Below, one piece after another: positions 1,944-38,947 of a stretch of DNA of 38,947 bases. A program made the position numbers and the translations under genes. Source of the DNA: Candidatus Niyogibacteria bacterium (GTDB lineage Bacteria; Patescibacteriota; Minisyncoccia; HO2-45-28). Location of the stretch: NCBI GenBank assembly GCA_016432485.1, contig CP066691.1:347762-386708 (forward strand), in the 5' to 3' direction. The first letter of the stretch is position 1; every line of letters begins with the position of its first letter. The notes under the pieces are model-generated. The model saw nothing but the letters and a program-made list of their open reading frames with translations. It searched no databases and was not told the DNA's origin.

Positions 1944-2683
1944 GGTTTAAATTTTCTTAATGGTGCCCGGCTTCTCGAATGGACGCTTGATCGTACGAGT
2001 GACTTAAATTTATCAATAAACTCCTGTTTAAACATAATATGGTTAACCCCGTCCTCTTTTTTCTCCTCTATATAATTTGGAAGGGGCTGGGGCTTATGAA
2101 TACCGGGTTCGTCTGTGGCAGCTGTAATTCGTAGTCCGGGCAACGGCCTAATTCTCTGAGCAACTGCCGCTCCTACCTCCCGTCCTCCCTTTTTAAATCG
2201 CAAATGTATTGTCCATATACTTATAAATGGATTTTCGGTCTTCAGATATTCTCTCAAAAGCGAAATCCACTCCTCGCTTTTTTCGTGGTTTACGAACACC
2301 AGCAAGCTAAACTTAACAGGTTTGGTACCATATTGACTCTGCTTCTTTTTCACAACCTCTGTAAATTCATCGAACGATTTGAAATGTGGATATACTCCGG
2401 TCAATTCTACGGGCTCCATGCGTAATTTTTCAGGAGTTTCGCCAAATGAAAAAAAATCAAAGTCTGGATAAGCTCTTTCTGCTTGGTCATACTGTGCAAG
2501 CCACCAATCTTTCCCGGTATATTTTTTCATCGCCAGTACAAAAAAATAGGCCGCAAATCCTTCCCGGGCTTTCTTTACCTCTTCTTCTGAACTGCTAAAG
2601 AATTTTTCTGGGCCGACTTTCTTTAAGATTTTTTCTACTCGTTCAAAAAGAGTATGTGGATGTGCAAAAAATATTCCTTGCAT
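1940..2683 (-). CDS. Hypothetical protein, possible PD-(D/E)xK nuclease fold
   Basis: 247-aa ORF. The pattern E(helix)...PDFDF...VELT...KKK...Y...LLVFV resembles restriction-endonuclease-like cores. The fold call is inference. Confidence 0.6.
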   Translation of the reverse strand: MQGIFFAHPHTLFERVEKILKKVGPEKFFSSSEEEVKKAREGFAAYFFVLAMKKYTGKDWWLAQYDQAERAYPDFDFFSFGETPEKLRMEPVELTGVYPHFKSFDEFTEVVKKKQSQYGTKPVKFSLLVFVNHEKSEEWISLLREYLKTENPFISIWTIHLRFKKGGREVGAAVAQRIRPLPGLRITAATDEPGIHKPQPLPNYIEEKKEDGVNHIMFKQEFIDKFKSLVRSSVHSRSRAPLRKFKP

Positions 2684-2706
2684 ATATTTCTACTTAAAAC
2701 CTTTAC

Positions 2707-2801
2707 TTGAGCGCCCGGTCTCTCCCGCCTTCACTAAAGCTGCCTCCTTCGCCGAAGTGGCTACGAAGGCCGAGTCGGCGGGCAAGCGAACGGGCGCTCA
2801 A
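2707..2801. repeat. Nested palindromic REP-like element
   Basis: Three nested inverted repeats: TTGAGCGCCCG/CGGGCGCTCAA, CCCGCC/GGCGGG and CCTTCG/CGAAGG. Confidence 0.75.
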
Positions 2802-2811
2802 TCCTATGTAA

Positions 2812-3063
2812 TTACAAAAAATAATTCTTTAGCATTTTATTGATTGTTCTTCGTCCCCAGCCGCTCTTTAAATATTCTTCGCGCGATTTGGCATCTTTCA
2901 TGTTTACAAACGCTTCGTAGTATATAAGCTCGTAGGGGCGAAATGGTCTCGTGGCCTGACTCTTGCCACTATTATGTTCAGTAAGCCTCTTTTCAATGTC
3001 GGTAGTATATCCAATATATAAACTTTGATTTTTCTTGCTCTGTAGAATGTAAACGTAATACAT
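2812..3063 (-). CDS. Small stand-alone GIY-YIG nuclease family protein
   Basis: YYVYIL...LYIGYT..IEKRL.EHN.G....T...RP..LIYYE......A..RE..LK signature, 83 aa. Confidence 0.92.
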   Translation of the reverse strand: MYYVYILQSKKNQSLYIGYTTDIEKRLTEHNSGKSQATRPFRPYELIYYEAFVNMKDAKSREEYLKSGWGRRTINKMLKNYFL

Positions 3064-30450: not shown

Positions 30451-30471
30451 GCCCCGACGCAAAGTCGGGGC
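30451..30471 (-). terminator. Probable terminator at the end of the NAD operon
   Basis: GCCCCGAC/GTCGGGGC stem followed by ATTTTT on the minus strand. Confidence 0.65.
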
Positions 30472-30478
30472 CTCGAAA

Positions 30479-32569
30479 TCAACCAGAGATAGTGTCGGGA
30501 ACTTTATCCAAGTCATCAAGCCACGGTTCGGCCGAAGCATCGGACGGCATCCGCCAATCCCCGCGAGGAGAAATGGCAATTGAACCGACCTTTGGACCGT
30601 CAGGCAGGCAAGAACGCTTAAACTGATTTCTGAAAAAACTTGAGAAGAAAACTTTGAGCCACTTCTTTATCTCGCCCACCGAGTATTTCTCTCCAAAAGC
30701 GCACAAAGCCATTCGCGCTATTTTAGACGGCCTGAATCCGAAACGTACGAAATAATATCCGGTAAAGTCGTGAAGTTCGTAGGGGCCGATAATGCTTTCG
30801 GTTTTCTGCGTAATCTTGCCTTTGTCCGGAGGCAGAAGCTCGGGTGAAATCGGAGTTTCCAAAACATCCAAAATGGATTCCCTGAAGCCGGATTCTTCCG
30901 CGAAAATCGTATCGGCCGCCCATCTCAAAAGATATGAAATCAGCGTCTTCGGAACTCCGGCATTTATGCCGTAATGGCTGGCGTGGTCCCCGAACATCGT
31001 GCAGTAGCCGATGAAAAGCTCGGAAAGATCGCCGGTGCCAAGCACAAATCCGCCCTCTTTGACCGAAACTGAAAATAAAATGTGTTTGCGCGCCCAGGCC
31101 TGAATGTTTTCAAGCGTTGATTTTTTCCTGCGCGTATCCGCGTCACTTCGTCCGTCACGCACCGCGGATCCGACTTCGGAAACGAAACTTTCAGCGTCTT
31201 CAATACCGATACTCTTGAAGGACAGCGCGACAAGTTCTTTTATCGGTATTTCACGGAAAGTCGCGCCTGCCGCGTTTATCATTTTGCAGGCGTTCCGGTA
31301 AGTCCGGTCAATCGTGCCGAAACCCGGCATGGTCAACGCGATAATATTGCTTCTAGGCAAACCTGACAGATCAATGGCGCGGATCGCGATATTTAAGGCG
31401 TGCGTCGAATCCTGCCCGCCCGATACGCCAATCACAATTTTTCTGCGGTCCGGCGGCAAAACTTCAAGACGCTTCATCAAACTTGTTGCCTGAATATTGA
31501 ATATCTCACGGCAACGCTCGTCTCTTTTTTGCGGATTTCCGGGAACGAACGGATGCGGATCTATTTCGCGTTCAAAATCAATATTCTCCGAATTACCCAT
31601 GGAATCGCTGAACTCAACAAGACGAAACTCCCTGGCATTATCAAAACCGTTTTGCCTGAAAGAACCCTGGCGCATGCGATCCGAGATAAGAGAATCCAAA
31701 TCAACATCGGCGATTATATGAGTTGAAATGCCGCTGAACCTTCCTGATTTTCTGAGCAACGCTCCCCTTTCGGCAATGTAACCGTCGCCGTCCCAGCCCA
31801 AATCGGTTGTTGACTCGCCAAAACCGGCCGCGGCATAAAGCTGAACCGCGAGATTCCGGGCCGACGAACCGACAACCAAACTTTCACGATATTCGGACTT
31901 GCCGACGGTTATGTTGGAAGCCGAAAGATTGGCCAGAACCGTAGCTCCGGCAAGCGCCGCCATGCTTGACGGCGGCACGGGCACCCAGATGTCTTCGCAA
32001 ATTTCGGTATGCAGAACAAAGTCCGGACGCTTAGCGGATTTAATCAGAATGTCCGAACCGAACGGAACTTTTTGGCCCAGCACGCTTATGATTTTACTTC
32101 TGGCTTCGCGGGCCGGAGCAAAATGGCGCAATTCATAAAACTCGCGGTATTCGGGCGGATATGATTTTGGCGTAACTGCCAGAATTTTTCCGCGCAAAAA
32201 AGTCACGGCGGCGTTAAAAAGCATTTCGTCAACCGTAAGCGGCAAACCGACCGTAACCATCATTTTCCAATCCCGCGTCAAAATAATAAGTTCTTTAAGC
32301 GCCGCAAGCGATGAACGGATAAGAGCGTCCGAAAGAAAAAGGTCTCCGCAGCTGTAACCGGTAATTCCAAGTTCGGGACAGACCGCGTAAGCCGCGCCTC
32401 TTTCATATACTTTTTTCAGCTCTTCAAAATGGCCACAAGCGTTCTTTGACGGATTTGCCAAGTACACTCTCGGAATAACCACGGCCACGCGAAGAAATCC
32501 GTGGTTTTCGACTGCCAGGAAATCTTTAATTTTCCTTTTTTCCATCTCATCCATGATTTTCTCCATCAT
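30479..32569 (-). CDS. nadE: Glutamine-dependent NAD+ synthetase (nitrilase domain plus synthetase domain)
   Basis: CPELGITGY, PKSYPP..EFYE, EICEDIW (E-K-C triad); GVSGGQDST, GTGDLSE, PISPEL, QFKRSCLPDGPKV. Confidence 0.96.
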   Translation of the reverse strand: MMEKIMDEMEKRKIKDFLAVENHGFLRVAVVIPRVYLANPSKNACGHFEELKKVYERGAAYAVCPELGITGYSCGDLFLSDALIRSSLAALKELIILTRDWKMMVTVGLPLTVDEMLFNAAVTFLRGKILAVTPKSYPPEYREFYELRHFAPAREARSKIISVLGQKVPFGSDILIKSAKRPDFVLHTEICEDIWVPVPPSSMAALAGATVLANLSASNITVGKSEYRESLVVGSSARNLAVQLYAAAGFGESTTDLGWDGDGYIAERGALLRKSGRFSGISTHIIADVDLDSLISDRMRQGSFRQNGFDNAREFRLVEFSDSMGNSENIDFEREIDPHPFVPGNPQKRDERCREIFNIQATSLMKRLEVLPPDRRKIVIGVSGGQDSTHALNIAIRAIDLSGLPRSNIIALTMPGFGTIDRTYRNACKMINAAGATFREIPIKELVALSFKSIGIEDAESFVSEVGSAVRDGRSDADTRRKKSTLENIQAWARKHILFSVSVKEGGFVLGTGDLSELFIGYCTMFGDHASHYGINAGVPKTLISYLLRWAADTIFAEESGFRESILDVLETPISPELLPPDKGKITQKTESIIGPYELHDFTGYYFVRFGFRPSKIARMALCAFGEKYSVGEIKKWLKVFFSSFFRNQFKRSCLPDGPKVGSIAISPRGDWRMPSDASAEPWLDDLDKVPDTISG

Positions 32570-33528
32570 GAACCGAGAATCTCTAGAATGGCTTTAGCGA
32601 ACACGCCCGAAACGTCAGCAACGACAATTCTCCGATCGGATAAGCTGGAGCCGAGATTTTGGCTCATTGGATGCGAATTGGTGGTCAGGATCACCCCCGG
32701 AAACGACGTAACAATTTTATGGAAGGCCTCGCCGTCGTTTATGGCCAAATGGCTGATAACGGCGTTAACGTCGGACGCGCCGTGATTCAAATACGCGGCT
32801 GCGGCATTTATCAAACTGCCTCCGCTTCTTAGCATGTCGTCATAAATTATCACGCGCTTGCCCTTAACATCACCTATGACTTCCGCGACCCTTGTGGTCT
32901 CGCCATAACGATCTTTATCAATCATGGCCATGCCGGCCCCGAATTTTCTGGCGAATGTTTTAACCCATTCTGGACGGCCGAGATCGGCCGAAGCGAAAAT
33001 TGTTTCTTGGGGGTTGGCGCACCAATTAAGTTTTTCCATCTCGTCTAAAAGAACTTCTTCGGCATACAATTCAAAACGCAGGCAATCGCCTTCAAAATAG
33101 TGCACAAAACCGGAAACATGAAGGTCCATCATCAGAAAAACATTACGCTTATCGCCGCCGGTTATAGCCGACAGCTGTTTTGCGACGGTTTTCGCCGTAA
33201 CAACTTCGCCCGGCTTTACGGCTCTTTCCATCGTCGAGTAGCCCATAAACGGAATCGCGTAAATGACGCGCTTTACGCCGTATTCGGCTAAAGCGCATCC
33301 GATCCGATAAACTTCAAGCAAGTTGGCGTCTGTGCTGGTGCTTGCGACAAAAATGACATCACGGCCCATGAGTCCCGAGCGGCTATCGGTGGAAATTCGG
33401 TAATATCTCTCGCCCCCTCCGAAAGTTTTCCTTTCTATTTCAGAGAGTTTTGGAATGCCTATTTTTCCGGCAATCAATCTGGCAAAATATTCGGAATCCC
33501 GCGTAGAAAAAATCAGGGGCTCTGGCAT
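32566..33528 (-). CDS. prs: Ribose-phosphate pyrophosphokinase, divergent
   Basis: TFGGGE, PFMGYSTMER, DLH, SADLG and YDDMLRSGGS map onto Prs motifs; AAGGAGG SD. Confidence 0.85.
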   Translation of the reverse strand: MPEPLIFSTRDSEYFARLIAGKIGIPKLSEIERKTFGGGERYYRISTDSRSGLMGRDVIFVASTSTDANLLEVYRIGCALAEYGVKRVIYAIPFMGYSTMERAVKPGEVVTAKTVAKQLSAITGGDKRNVFLMMDLHVSGFVHYFEGDCLRFELYAEEVLLDEMEKLNWCANPQETIFASADLGRPEWVKTFARKFGAGMAMIDKDRYGETTRVAEVIGDVKGKRVIIYDDMLRSGGSLINAAAAYLNHGASDVNAVISHLAINDGEAFHKIVTSFPGVILTTNSHPMSQNLGSSLSDRRIVVADVSGVFAKAILEILGS

Positions 33529-33645: not shown

Positions 33646-34887
33646 TTAATATTTACACTCTTCAAAGGTCGTGTAGACGTAGCCGAAAATTTTCTTGAAT
33701 CTTTCAACGTCTTTCGGCCTTCCAATGGCTTTTGCGATGTTGTCGCTCAACTTTACAAGCCCTTGGCCACTGGCTTCAACTGTTTTCACCACCAGAGAAA
33801 GGGCTTTAAAACCGAGGTCGTTGGTCAAATTTGTGCCCCAGCCGAAAGTCGTTTTAATCCTGCCATTAAATTCTTTATATAATTCAATAATCGTATCAAC
33901 ATCCAAACCATCGCTAAAAACTATCATCTTTGTTTTCGGATCAACACCCATTTTCTCGTAAAAAGCAATTGCTTTTCTTCCGAACAAAAACGGATCTCCG
34001 GAGTCCTGGCGCAAACCTTTCCAACTCCGCGCCTGTTCAGCAGTCATATCTCCAAAAAAGAAATCTGTCCCGTAAGTATCGGTAAGCGCGATGGAAAGGC
34101 CGAAACCATATTCGTCCCACCAATCCCATAAAACCTTGCTATGAGAAGCGCGAATCGTTTCATCGCTTTCGCCCATAATGCCGGACATCACCATATACAT
34201 TTCGTGAGCCGAAGTGCCCATCGGCAAAAGTCCGTGCTTCATGGCCAAATACGTGTTTGATGTGCCAAGCATCTGACGCGGAATTTCTTCAGCCAAAACG
34301 CCAACGACGTAATCCTGCCAATCGCGACTAAAACGCCTGCGCGTACCAAAATCGCAAAAAGTTATATTGGGGCACTCGCAAAGTTTACCTATTTTTCCAT
34401 CCAAACGCTTTCGGCCTTCGGCAAAAACCAAATCCCGCCCGAAACGGCTTTCCATGGAAAGAAGCGACCGATAATAAAGTTCGTTCACTATCGCAAGCGC
34501 TATTGTTTCCCAGTAAATAGCGCTTGACCACTTGCCGGAAAATTCCAGCAAAAACTGGCCGTCTCTTACCTCCAAATCGTAATCCGGCAATTCCAGTCCC
34601 GACAAAAATTCAAGATAATCTTCTTTAAACATTCGCTCGCCATATTCGTTGGTGCCTCGAAGATAATGGATTTCCGTTTTATTGAATTTCAGTTCGCGCG
34701 CGTAATCCAGCTCGCGGCGCAAATCGCTTTCCGGAACGAAATGCGCGATCTGGATAGCTGTTGTTCTGTTCGTCAAAGCGTAACGAACCGGCACATCCGG
34801 ATAACGACGATAGACCACTTGTCCCATCGTAAATTTGTAAAAATCAGTGTCCAAAAGAGACCGGATTATTGGTTCGCGCTCGAGCAT
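33646..34887 (-). CDS. pncB: Nicotinate phosphoribosyltransferase
   Basis: SLLDTDFYKFTM, DFGTRRRFS, GTSN, GTSAHE, RQDSGDP, FSDGL, FGWGTNLTND, KLSDN. Confidence 0.96.
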   Translation of the reverse strand: MLEREPIIRSLLDTDFYKFTMGQVVYRRYPDVPVRYALTNRTTAIQIAHFVPESDLRRELDYARELKFNKTEIHYLRGTNEYGERMFKEDYLEFLSGLELPDYDLEVRDGQFLLEFSGKWSSAIYWETIALAIVNELYYRSLLSMESRFGRDLVFAEGRKRLDGKIGKLCECPNITFCDFGTRRRFSRDWQDYVVGVLAEEIPRQMLGTSNTYLAMKHGLLPMGTSAHEMYMVMSGIMGESDETIRASHSKVLWDWWDEYGFGLSIALTDTYGTDFFFGDMTAEQARSWKGLRQDSGDPFLFGRKAIAFYEKMGVDPKTKMIVFSDGLDVDTIIELYKEFNGRIKTTFGWGTNLTNDLGFKALSLVVKTVEASGQGLVKLSDNIAKAIGRPKDVERFKKIFGYVYTTFEECKY

Positions 34888-34902: not shown

Positions 34903-36276
34903 TCATCCGGGGAATTGGCTGGACATGATTTTTTCGGCTCGGTCTGGCGGAGTCGCCAGTTCGGCTGCGGCAATCCGGCTTCGTCGGATTTTCATTTCAA
35001 TTACCGGGCCCTGGTCCGCGCCGTCAACGAAACCGTTAAGCGGTCTTTTGACCGGATCAAGCGTCCTCCAAGTAACGGTTGAATCAAGCGTAATCTGCGT
35101 CGCTTTCCAGTTGGGACGCGCCACATTGGAGCCGACCAAAGTCAAAACGGGCGCGTGAACCGGAACCGCCAAAGCGCCCATCGCTTTGGCGTAAGCAGTG
35201 GAGCCGGCGGGAGTGGCCGCCAAAATTCCGTCAGCCACAAGCAAAGGGATGCGCCGGACTCCGTCTATTTCCAATTCAATCCAAGCGGTTTGCCCCGCCC
35301 CCCTTTCAACCCAGACATCATTAAACGCCAACGCCCGTTTCGTCATTCCCCCCGCATCCGTAATTTCAACATAAAGCAAAGGCATCTGATCCAAATCAAC
35401 GCTTAAACTGCCGCTCAAAAGTTCACGAACGGCCGGACTTTCAGGGTCATTCATCAAAAATCCATGAGTGCCTTTGTTAATCCCGAAAAACGGAAGTCTT
35501 TCCCGCCAATGGCTTCGGATGGCATGCAGCATAAACCCGTCGCCTCCGATAACCGTAATCAAATTCGGATGGCTTGAATCTCTTAAACCCGAAACCCGAA
35601 CAAATTCTTCGGCTTTCGGGTTGCGGCCGTCAAAAAGAACTTTCGGACGAACCTCGCTTAAGACCAGCTGGGATCGCCCCGAAATTCGCGCTCCGCGGTA
35701 AAGACCGTGACGAAGAATATAATCATTGATTTTACGGTCAACCAATCCTTCAACGGACTCGCGTCTGAAAACTTTTTCCCGGGTTTCTGAAGAGCTTCCG
35801 GTAAATGCTTCGTAAAAAACCCTGCTTCTCGGCGGAAGGTCGCGATCAGCCATTTCAATACCTTGTCTGTAAACAACCGCGAAATTAAGCTCGCGCCAAA
35901 TTTCTTCCCCCCGTTCCCATTCGCGCTGAATAAAAGACCGGCCCTCGTTTCCGCCCTTAATCAAATCGGCGCCGACAATGTGCCAGATTTCTCCGCCGCC
36001 GCGAAACATTGCGTCAAGATTATGCGTGCGGGTAAACGTGCCCATTTCCAGATCAAAAAGTTCAACTCTTACGTTGGGTAAACCGCTAAAAGCCATATCA
36101 ACCATAGTCGCGCGATGCACAGGATCAATATCATTGACGGTCGGCTTATCCGGCCTAGGCCCGCAGGGAATGATAATCACTTCATCAAACTCGCGCGCCA
36201 CCATCTCAACAATAAGCCGGTGGGCAACGCGCGGAGGGTTAAAGCTCCCGCCGTAGATCGCGATTTTTTTAGTCAT
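34903..36276 (-). CDS. Fused nicotinate-nucleotide adenylyltransferase (NadD-like) and NAD kinase (NadK)
   Basis: N-terminal IAIYGGSFNPPRVAH...SSSETR; C-terminal IGGDGFML, GINKGTHGFLMN, FNDV, DGILAATPAGSTAY; single continuous 457-aa ORF. Confidence 0.9.
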   Translation of the reverse strand: MTKKIAIYGGSFNPPRVAHRLIVEMVAREFDEVIIIPCGPRPDKPTVNDIDPVHRATMVDMAFSGLPNVRVELFDLEMGTFTRTHNLDAMFRGGGEIWHIVGADLIKGGNEGRSFIQREWERGEEIWRELNFAVVYRQGIEMADRDLPPRSRVFYEAFTGSSSETREKVFRRESVEGLVDRKINDYILRHGLYRGARISGRSQLVLSEVRPKVLFDGRNPKAEEFVRVSGLRDSSHPNLITVIGGDGFMLHAIRSHWRERLPFFGINKGTHGFLMNDPESPAVRELLSGSLSVDLDQMPLLYVEITDAGGMTKRALAFNDVWVERGAGQTAWIELEIDGVRRIPLLVADGILAATPAGSTAYAKAMGALAVPVHAPVLTLVGSNVARPNWKATQITLDSTVTWRTLDPVKRPLNGFVDGADQGPVIEMKIRRSRIAAAELATPPDRAEKIMSSQFPG

Positions 36277-36501
36277 GCCGTTCCTCCCTTTCAGGGTGTT
36301 ATTTTTTTTAAAAGAACGCTTGCCTCAATTCGCCTCTCGGCTCAATTAAGGCAAGAGAATCGCAGCCAAATTTGCTTGTCCCGCCATTGGCGGGGTCAGC
36401 TAAAATTCTCTTACTTGTCCCATCTCGCCCCGCCGTCGGCGGGGTAAAGGCGGGAAAAATTCTTTTAAAGAATAACATAAAGTCAAGAAAAGATCAAGTT
36501 T

Positions 36502-36573: not shown

Positions 36574-38310
36574 CTACTTCATGCGAGCTGACCAAATTTC
36601 ACCTTCATATATATAGAGAACTCTGTCCCCGATATTGGTCAAAGCCATTTCCGTTGAAATCTGGCCGTCTTGAACGCGACTTACATTTCCGGTCGCGGGA
36701 ACAAACACATCCAGCTCGCCATCTCTGACTATCGCCGCGCAAACGCCTTTGGGCAAAATAGCGATGTTAATATCCGGGTCGTCGGTCTGTCCATGCCAAA
36801 CCCGGTAGCTTGCGTAAGTTTTGTCAAATGACAATTCAATTTTTTGATACTGTCCGTTTTTATCAACCGCTACGATGGATATAAATCTGGGCCCTGCTTT
36901 CGCCGATATTGGACATAGGCCGTCTAATTCCCGTACTCGTACTTGAGCGCAAGCGTTATCGCCGAAAGGAGCAATGATGAAACTTGCCCCCATCGCGTTT
37001 TGTATTCCCGCGCCGTCAAACCAGGTTATGGAATTTACCGTTGCTCCCCAGGTATTCCCGGCGGACATCACCGGCTTCAAGGCGCCTCTCACGACAAGTT
37101 CGCAGAGCCCGTCTTCTATCACGGCAAAAATCCTATTTTCATAACGGAGTATTTCTCGCACATTCAGATGAATTGAAAGTTCGGTTTCCTCAAAGTTAGC
37201 GGCGCTAATGAATGAGAATAACGGCTTAAATCCGTCATAATCGGCCTTAAGCCACCCTCTGCCTGCGTCAACTACTTCGCATTTCTTTGATTTTACCAGG
37301 CCAATCTCGCGCCTCGTATTAAGATCAATCAAACGACCAGATTCAAGCAGAACAACTCCGCAAGGAAAAACACGGATTGCTTTATCACTTTTATCGGAAA
37401 AAATTTTGTCGCAGATGAGCAAACCGCTGCCGGATATAACCGCGTGTTTGACTTGGACAGCTGGCGCCGTCATCAAACTCTTGTCGAAAGGCGAAGGAGG
37501 GATCGACCTTTGACCGTTTTGGAAAGTCGCCACATACCAGTCAAGGAGCTTTCCAGGAATCACGGAGAAATCGCGCACCGCGCGATTCAGACGCACGCCC
37601 GGAGAAAACACCGAAGCGTTGGCTTTCATCCGCCTCTCCAAATCACCCCGCTCAAAACCGTCAAGCGTACCTTTGTAAGGGTGTATGCCGGTATAAATCT
37701 GAAAGCTTACAACCCCCCAGGAAAACCAATCAGTCAGTTTGTTAAAATCCTTTGAATGCCAATCCCTGATGGAGGGCATAATCGCGCGCGCCGGCCATCT
37801 AGCAATCTGCCATGAATCAACATCAATAATTCTTGGTTCGGGGCCGCTATTCCGGGCAAGCACAGCTTTCCAATTTAACTCATTCGGGTCCACAAGAATC
37901 GCCCCAAAACTATGAGCAAAAGAAATCGTCTCCCTCATTCTGTCCGTTAAAATAGAGGCGTCTTTATCCGTAAAACCCTGACGCGCGCGAAAGTCATTGG
38001 TAAATAGACGCATAAAAGGTTCGCCTTCAACAAAATCCATATAGAATCCCGCCACCTTACCCCTTTCGTCAAAAACTAATCCTTTCGGCGCGACGATATA
38101 TTCATGCTTTATACCGGAAAGAAGTTTTATTTTCTCCGCCATATCATCGCGCGACATCTTTGTTGAATCCAAATACAGCTTCACGGCAGTACCATGCGCT
38201 CTGTAAATTGAGCCTTCGCCGCCAGTGGCAACATGATCGCCTGAAGGGTGAATCGTAAGTTCGCCCCGACCATCAAGTTTTACTTTGATGTTTTTCAGGA
38301 ATCTAGCCAT
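36574..38310 (-). CDS. Eukaryotic-like Ser/Thr protein kinase, YegI-like, with an unrecognised beta-rich C-terminal domain
   Basis: GGEGSIY, AVKLY, LVDPNELN, IIDVDSWQ, TDWFS and GIHPYKG kinase subdomains; no obvious TM. Confidence 0.88.
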   Translation of the reverse strand: MARFLKNIKVKLDGRGELTIHPSGDHVATGGEGSIYRAHGTAVKLYLDSTKMSRDDMAEKIKLLSGIKHEYIVAPKGLVFDERGKVAGFYMDFVEGEPFMRLFTNDFRARQGFTDKDASILTDRMRETISFAHSFGAILVDPNELNWKAVLARNSGPEPRIIDVDSWQIARWPARAIMPSIRDWHSKDFNKLTDWFSWGVVSFQIYTGIHPYKGTLDGFERGDLERRMKANASVFSPGVRLNRAVRDFSVIPGKLLDWYVATFQNGQRSIPPSPFDKSLMTAPAVQVKHAVISGSGLLICDKIFSDKSDKAIRVFPCGVVLLESGRLIDLNTRREIGLVKSKKCEVVDAGRGWLKADYDGFKPLFSFISAANFEETELSIHLNVREILRYENRIFAVIEDGLCELVVRGALKPVMSAGNTWGATVNSITWFDGAGIQNAMGASFIIAPFGDNACAQVRVRELDGLCPISAKAGPRFISIVAVDKNGQYQKIELSFDKTYASYRVWHGQTDDPDINIAILPKGVCAAIVRDGELDVFVPATGNVSRVQDGQISTEMALTNIGDRVLYIYEGEIWSARMK

Positions 38311-38947
38311 GTTTGCGCCTGCCGGTCGGAATTTTCTGCCCTGATAACGGCGTACGCAATGTCGTCTATCGGCCCCCGGCCTCTTTTTCTGGCATCTTTA
38401 ATGCCGCGAATCATGCGCCTCTTTGCGAACTCTCCCGCTAAATTTTTAAACGCCAGAAATTCAATAACAGCATTCTTCCAATCCATGCCGTCAATCTGCG
38501 CGATACCGTCAGAAAATAAAGCTGTAAGAGCGTTATTTTCCACATCCGAGGCATCCAAAAAAATCGTTATTCCGCGCATGCCCTCGCTCAACGTGAAATT
38601 TTTCACGCCGCCGAAAGTGAAATTGCCCTGATCCCAAATATAAATTTCTTCAGTCAATCGGATGGAATTCAGGTCTCCGCGGTGCGCGGCAACAAAACCG
38701 CCCAGGCCCCTTTCGGCATACGCGGGATAAAACGGAATATTATCGCTCCATTCAAACTTAGACATAAAGACACGCCCGGCGCGATTTTTAATCGCCAGAA
38801 CTCCGTCGCCCTGTAAATTTACATAGCCCCCGTTTGCGGCAAGGCAGGCGTGCAAACAAGTGGCAAGCATATCTTTTTCTTCCAGACCAAGCATACTGCG
38901 CGCGCCGGATATTACGGCTTTTTGCCACAGATTTACCTTTTCTACCG
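38295..38947 (-). CDS. PP2C-like (PphC/YegK-like) protein phosphatase, 5'-truncated
   Basis: LATCL...QGDG, LFSDGI and IDDIA motifs. The frame stays open from the track start (38894) to the window edge. Its stop overlaps the kinase start. Confidence 0.8.
   Translation of the reverse strand, partial: VEKVNLWQKAVISGARSMLGLEEKDMLATCLHACLAANGGYVNLQGDGVLAIKNRAGRVFMSKFEWSDNIPFYPAYAERGLGGFVAAHRGDLNSIRLTEEIYIWDQGNFTFGGVKNFTLSEGMRGITIFLDASDVENNALTALFSDGIAQIDGMDWKNAVIEFLAFKNLAGEFAKRRMIRGIKDARKRGRGPIDDIAYAVIRAENSDRQAQTWLDS

Follow-up and report, generated by a model that had tools for sequence, protein, structure and literature searches.

A NadD-NadK fusion protein with an R-x-A-H form of the ATP motif in a predicted nicotinate-to-NADP operon of Candidatus Niyogibacteria bacterium

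The window, that is the whole stretch of 38,947 nucleotides analysed in this study, carries on its minus strand a gene in which a NadD-like nucleotidyltransferase is joined to a short-type NAD kinase. The open reading frame starts with ATG and is preceded by a strong Shine-Dalgarno sequence (GGGAGG) 6 nt 5ʹ of the start. It belongs to an operon with the order promoter-like site and leader, nadD-nadK, pncB, prs, nadE and strong terminator (Table 1), in which the ATG of nadE overlaps the stop codon of prs (ATGA).

Table 1. Coordinates of the NAD operon and of the elements of its fusion gene in the window.
Feature	Position	Strand	Basis and details
Promoter-like site (TTGACT-16-AAGAAT, 36486-36459) and structured 5ʹ leader	36277..36486	-	Promoter scan; fold z-score -5.1
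nadD-nadK fusion gene	34903..36276	-	457 aa + stop; ORF list, domain matches, >120 collinear homologues, AF2 model
NadD-like nucleotidyltransferase domain, residues 3-195	35692..36270	-	End-to-end alignment with solved NadDs 8aih and 1kam
ATP motif GGSFNPPRVAH, residues 9-19	36220..36252	-	R16 codon CGC 36229-36231; H19 36220-36222
Second ATP motif SSSETR, residues 161-166	35779..35796	-	Fits ISSTxxR; S162 nearly invariant, R166 invariant in alignment A1
Short-type NAD kinase domain, residues about 203-457	34906..35670	-	NF003406, Foldseek, 262-aa NAD kinases
GGDG motif of NAD kinase, residues 244-247	35536..35547	-	G244, G245 and D246 invariant, G247 nearly so in alignment A1
pncB (nicotinate phosphoribosyltransferase)	33646..34887	-	NF003704, 447 bits (cut-off 379); 15 nt 3ʹ of the fusion stop
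prs (ribose-phosphate diphosphokinase)	32566..33528	-	TIGR01251, 152.7 bits (cut-off 113); 117 nt 3ʹ of pncB
Glutamine-dependent nadE	30479..32569	-	NF002730, 801 bits (cut-off 473); CN_hydrolase + NAD_synthase
Terminator-like hairpin and T-run closing the operon	30451..30471	-	8-bp stem, 7 GC pairs, then ATTTTTTATA (terminator scan)

The preliminary description of this DNA had read the gene as a single polypeptide joining NadD to NadK, and Pfam, NCBIfam and PDB sequence searches all agreed in returning two domains. Pfam placed CTP_transf_like at residues 7-146 (41.9 bits, above the cut-off) and the N- and C-terminal NAD_kinase domains at residues 238-287 and 319-368, with PF01513 scoring just under its cut-off of 25.5 in the protein scan (24.2) and above it in the genome scan (26.6). 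The NadD models of NCBIfam matched residues 3-194; TIGR00482 reached 70.1 bits (positions 1-194; 72.7 bits in the genome scan), which is below its equivalog cut-off of 112.45. The NAD kinase model NF003406 matched residues 225-455 with 144.8 bits, also below its cut-off of 211, and no curated model among those of NCBIfam or Pfam described the whole NadD-NadK architecture. When compared with solved NadDs, residues 3-194 corresponded to residues 25-211 of 8aih (E 5e-13) and to residues 6-193 of 1kam (E 1e-12).

The AF2 model of the fusion, built with 35 homologues, was a compact two-domain body (pLDDT 90.2, pTM 0.89), in which the interdomain linker was continuous and confident, the confidence falling slightly at residues 191-200 and nowhere else. 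The kinase half had the two-domain NAD kinase fold and matched solved NAD kinases such as 7qvs, 1yt5 and 5dhp in Foldseek (TMt 0.75-0.79, E 1e-18), and residues 203-457 superposed with 262-aa NAD kinases at a TM of 0.9. The NadK motifs GGDG, N319-D320 and D349-G...T355..G358-S-T-A-Y362 were kept in alignment A1 and in 116 of the 120 best homologues; the motifs ND-W-ER and DG..T..GSTAY were likewise conserved in the fusion family.

With respect to known enzymes, the NadD half is collinear with bacterial NadD (B. subtilis 1KAM, 8AIH, 2H29) over about 190 residues, and both have in common the GGxFxP...H and SSxxR motifs and the C-terminal GLY motif, as well as the pathway position between PncB and NadE. 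It differs from bacterial NadD in that the first histidine of the ATP motif is replaced by Arg (by Gly in most of the family), in its score below the TIGR00482 cut-off, in belonging to a distinct subfamily, and in being fused to NadK. Eukaryotic NMNAT and bacterial PPAT are members of the same superfamily in which the first His is also absent, its place being taken by Thr, not by Arg or Gly; neither is a close sequence match of the fusion (E~1e-5 for PPAT). For the kinase half, the best NCBIfam match was the short NAD kinase NF003406/PRK04761 (about 257-262 aa; Pelagibacter, Bartonella, Wolbachia), which has the same motifs, and the identity to alphaproteobacterial NAD kinase genes was 28-35% (tblastn). 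The fusion is set apart from this group by its score (145 vs 211) and by the N-terminal NadD domain that it carries.

The architecture turned out to be common. In a word-index search, all of the best 120 protein matches were 450-492 aa long, with a query coverage of 95-100% and an identity of 49-99%, and most of them had both Pfam domains. Their source names included 'NAD(+)/NADH kinase' (NCBI) and 'NAD kinase/nicotinic acid mononucleotide adenylyltransferase' (JGI). The tree placed the window protein inside this NadD-NadK fusion family, and the fusion also fell into an ESM Atlas cluster of about 700 members, among which Planctomycetota were the commonest. When only the NadD half was used as query, an exhaustive search delimited a distinct subfamily of 196 representatives at E<=1e-30, followed by a sharp drop; the best 150 representatives (at 50% identity) comprised 76 proteins of fusion size, 60 stand-alone, 4 in which the domain was C-terminal in a longer protein, and 10 of other lengths. 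The 830-836-aa representatives P0196 and P0264 had the NadD domain at the C-terminus. The preliminary description did not know the fusion as a characterised enzyme, and in this it was right as far as our literature search goes, which turned up no publication about a NadD-NadK fusion, an absence that is not proof; the NADK review PMC9763689 makes no mention of it. It had also asked whether the architecture is already common and characterised, and here the answer was divided, as it is common and annotated by pipelines, with no evidence of characterisation found. The NadD-NadK fusion is a catalogued, common and biochemically uncharacterised family.

In the ATP motif, the preliminary description had pointed to FNPPRVAH with a CGC codon at about 36228-36230; the motif and the codon were confirmed and the position was corrected by one base (Table 1). 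R16 aligned to the first histidine of the solved NadDs, i.e. to that of GGTFNPVHLAH (8aih), GGTFDPPHNGH (1kam) and GGQFNPIHTAH (2h29). Since Ala is usual at the third position of the motif (HLAH, HTAH), the change of His to Arg is the sole deviation in RVAH, and H19, the last His of the motif, was invariant in alignment A1. The motif had been described as an altered HxGH; the alteration is real, but it is not specific to this gene, as nearly the whole fusion family is without the first His and GxHH is the dominant form. The motifs of the best 120 fusion homologues were GxHH (105), AxHH (9), Rx[A/T]H (3), CxHH (2) and GxHQ (1), and the canonical first His was present in none of them. In a phmmer-anchored alignment of the best 150 NadD-half representatives, position 1 was occupied by G, A, T, H, C, S or R, there was hardly any variation in the last His, and the S....R motif was retained in 73 of the 76 representatives of fusion size. 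Arg at position 1 was rare, with one other case among these 150 representatives; it also occurred in P0002 and P0003 of alignment A1, and besides the congener with RVAH two relatives had RPTH. The signature of NMNATs given for the Giardia enzyme, GxFxPx[H/T]xxH together with ISSTxxR (PMC5889475), means that a variable position 1 is already on record, although R16 itself is neither the H nor the T of this signature.

On sequence comparison, the RVAH of the fusion is a natural lineage-specific variant, a rare Arg at a position that varies throughout the subfamily. In this NadD subfamily, with G-x-H-H as its usual form, the first His of HxGH would be dispensable. Within the tree clade of the genus, the RVAH sequences (the window fusion and its congener G301) were sister to a CPHH pair together with an RPTH pair, and Arg at position 1 went with loss of the position-3 His, Cys, Gly or Ala with its retention. 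This pattern suggests compensation, in which Arg probably takes over the ATP-phosphate contact of the lost position-3 His in this genus; as at most two evolutionary events stand behind the pairing, the compensation is something that we infer rather than observe.

The genome is a single 836,981-bp contig with a completeness of 98%. In it, the fusion was the only NAD kinase match and the only credible NadD, the other superfamily match to the NadD model being a 176-aa protein with 19.7 bits. This cytidylyltransferase-like protein (L003:1261-1791, minus strand; G000:C1 about 116.5-117.1 kb) has the canonical GGFDPIHVGH and is more like TagD or RfaE domain II than like NadD. NadA, PncA and PnuC were not found in the genome, nor was a second PncB/NAPRT/NAMPT, pncB being the only gene of the NAPRTase family, and the prs of the operon was the only Prs above the cut-off. 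With no other NadD or NadK, and with pncB, prs and nadE in the operon, the fusion is thus the sole candidate for steps 2 and 4 on the way from nicotinate to NADP. From this gap-filling argument, based on genome content, both halves of the fusion are most likely active despite the missing first His.

We consider it likely that the protein is a bifunctional enzyme of NAD(P) biosynthesis, NadD plus NadK, with a separate NadE acting between the two steps and with RVAH as a lineage variant. The N-terminal domain would convert NaMN and ATP to NaAD and PPi, the separately encoded glutamine-dependent NadE would convert NaAD to NAD, and the C-terminal short-type NAD kinase domain would phosphorylate NAD to NADP. 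PncB and Prs of the same operon would complete a self-contained route from nicotinate and ribose-5-phosphate to NADP. That the fused steps are not consecutive had already been remarked in the first reading of this DNA, and indeed the NadE that separates them is encoded by its own gene in the operon. The genomic context, in which the fusion is the sole NadD candidate and stands between pncB and nadE in the pathway, points to a preference of the N-terminal domain for NaMN over NMN.

Alternatively, the NadD-like half could be catalytically dead or regulatory, binding nucleotides so as to modulate the NAD kinase, with NAD or NaAD obtained from a host. Such a role would agree with the loss of the first His from nearly the whole fusion family, with the score of the NadD half below the NadD equivalog cut-off, and with the common lack of cofactor pathways in Patescibacteria, where NAD kinase above the Pfam cut-off was detected in 25 of 200 other genomes (completeness of at least 90%). 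However, the last His, GxFxP and SSxxR are conserved, and pncB and nadE would be pointless in the operon without a NaMN adenylyltransferase, for which there is no other NadD candidate. Moreover, among five large genomes of free-living type that carry the fusion, three had no other detected NadD and one had no other NadK; canonical copies accompanied the fusion in two. Eukaryotic NMNAT and PPAT are T-x-x-H enzymes and are active. Active members of the superfamily with T-x-x-H (for the motif, PMC5889475) further argue against a dead domain, and we regard this explanation as very unlikely.

It could also be that the N-terminal domain prefers NMN, in which case the fused steps would be consecutive (NMN to NAD to NADP) and the fusion would channel NAD. 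The GSFNP..xxH form resembles the motif of eukaryotic NMNAT, the predicted model is a compact body of two domains, and some NadD-family enzymes accept both NaMN and NMN. On the other hand, we found no source of NMN in the genome (no PnuC, no NAMPT-type second phosphoribosyltransferase), the operon supplies NaMN via PncB and includes the NadE required to amidate NaAD, and the nearest solved structures are bacterial NadDs that prefer NaMN, so that a preference for NMN seems slightly less probable still. Even less credence is given to a coupled or re-ordered pathway, in which the kinase would convert NaAD to NaADP and NadE would then produce NADP, or in which NADP(H) bound to the kinase would exert allosteric feedback on the adenylyltransferase; if true, it would mean that G-x-H-H / R-x-A-H marks a rearranged, subfamily-specific ATP site.

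There are precedents for joining such activities. In the archaeal bifunctional NADP phosphatase/NAD kinase (NF010678, MJ0917 type), to which the fusion is a weak match, NAD kinase shares a polypeptide with a second domain of NAD(P) metabolism. In place of a nucleotidyltransferase, the MJ0917 type has an inositol-monophosphatase-like NADP phosphatase as partner, the activity of which opposes that of the kinase instead of standing in series with it. HldE (RfaE) of ADP-heptose synthesis combines a kinase with a cytidylyltransferase-like adenylyltransferase for two non-consecutive steps, with GmhB acting between them. For the fusion, NadE would have the in-between role of GmhB; HldE differs from the fusion in its pathway, in the fold of its kinase and in domain order.

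Among species-representative genomes, the full-length fusion was found in Verrucomicrobiota (Prosthecobacter, Luteolibacter, Chthoniobacteraceae), in Planctomycetota (Planctomycetaceae, Fimbriiglobus, Limnoglobus, Gemmataceae) and in Acidobacteriota, three phyla in which the family is widespread, as well as in one Binatia MAG and one Patescibacteria MAG. It was present in three of the four other species of the window's genus (99, 69 and 62% identity), in none of the four other genera of the family, and in none of 300 evenly sampled genomes of other Patescibacteria. An operon uniting the fusion, PncB, Prs and, as far as the contigs extended, NadE was found in the genus of the window (with full synteny in G302), in a high-GC Patescibacteria-labelled MAG and in a Binatia MAG; in the loci of Verrucomicrobiota, Planctomycetota and Acidobacteriota the fusion lay apart from pncB, prs and nadE. 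The sequences of the genus formed a clade with 100/100 support, grouped with two other Patescibacteria sequences, and this grouping sat among clades of Verrucomicrobiota, Planctomycetota and Acidobacteriota, in a radiation that the tree did not resolve. The nesting among other phyla and the lack of the operon in the four other genera of the family make its horizontal transfer into the genus plausible; as the backbone of the tree is a polytomy, the donor cannot be named.

A 'Patescibacteria' MAG and a 'Binatia' MAG (L010 and L009) shared a near-identical PncA/fusion/X/PncB/Prs(/NadE) cluster with a GC-rich stretch 5ʹ of the fusion gene, and their fusion proteins were sisters with 100/100 support; one of the two may owe its taxonomic label to misbinning. 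Similarly, a 'Clostridia' MAG (L020) grouped with Blastocatellia.

A split form of the fusion was found in a genome of the same class (G314), where nadD and nadK (L099:1501-2100 and 2097-2846, plus strand) overlap by ATGA and encode a 199-aa NadD with the motif GGSLHPPGKHH and a 249-aa NadK. Ahead of this pair lie a gene for a PncA-like isochorismatase and the last part of an NrtR-like one. Given such a pair, the joining of adjacent, translationally coupled genes is the simplest and most likely origin of the fusion, and its benefit would probably lie in compactness and in co-expression at a fixed ratio of 1:1, not in substrate channelling. As a split pair exists in a related genome, a single indel could mimic a fusion, but the frameshift and the erroneous base call for Arg which the preliminary description had allowed for are almost certainly not the explanation, in view of more than 120 full-length collinear homologues (50-68% identity) from four or more phyla, the fusion in three of four congeners, the identical RVAH in the independent assembly of the 99%-identical G301, the Arg in P0002 and P0003 and the RPTH of two relatives, and the continuous, confident linker of the model. 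In another genome of the same class (G333; L102:1510-3543, minus strand), NadE (CN-hydrolase plus NAD synthase) was fused ahead of a NadD of the GxHH-type subfamily in a protein of at least 677 aa with the motif GSGCNPPAIHH; in this case the fused steps are consecutive.

The protein of the window is, judged from its sequence, an ordinary and biochemically uncharacterised bifunctional NadD-NadK, and what is noteworthy is the NAD(P) operon in Patescibacteria and the series of motifs. Pipelines often label the fusion just 'NAD(+)/NADH kinase', so that NadD can look missing in the genomes concerned, and recognition of the N-terminal NadD half fills this apparent gap in the NAD pathway. The operon would provide one genus of Patescibacteria with a complete route from nicotinate to NADP, and the fusion is unusual here mainly because such an operon is rare in the phylum. 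A complete NAD(P) operon also bears on the extent to which the ultra-small cells of Patescibacteria depend on hosts for cofactors. The series HxGH / TxxH / GxHH / RxAH may be viewed as a natural experiment on the question which residues of the nucleotidyltransferase signature are indispensable. A phage pathway of the NARP1 type (Prs-like Adps plus Namat) was considered for the locus and rejected, the window being chromosomal (rpoB/C, groEL, uvrA) and PncB and Prs passing their NCBIfam cut-offs.

The 5ʹ leader of the operon was compared among four loci (window 36277-36486, minus strand; L105:9477-9700, minus strand; L106:2887-3110, minus strand; L097:1-214, plus strand). It was 88% identical to the leader of a congener whose fusion protein is just 61% identical, and it contained two conserved hairpins, the second being followed by a U-run in an attenuator-like arrangement. 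The Rfam scan (E<=1) returned only chance-level matches and no NAD riboswitch, and the alignment fold of the four leaders showed no compensatory changes in the hairpins. The leader may be an undescribed cis-regulator of the NAD genes.

Two genes lie 5ʹ of the operon on the same strand, both syntenic in congener G302: one encodes a 578-aa protein (36574-38310) whose N-terminus resembles a protein kinase only weakly (22 bits for Pkinase, under the cut-off), and the other is an ORF of 199 aa (38295-38894). A strong hairpin and the promoter-like site stand between them and the NAD operon, so they probably form a separate transcription unit.

We also noticed a GC-rich mini-hairpin, CCCGCC-N3-GGCGGG(ACAAG), in the leaders (window 36380-36394 and 36429-36443; L106 about 2900-2925). 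Its copies stood at varying positions and numbered none in G303, one in G302, two in the genome of the window (G000) and three in G301, and the strict pattern occurred nowhere else in the genome. Copies distributed in this way look like a small palindrome that has been duplicated or inserted locally.
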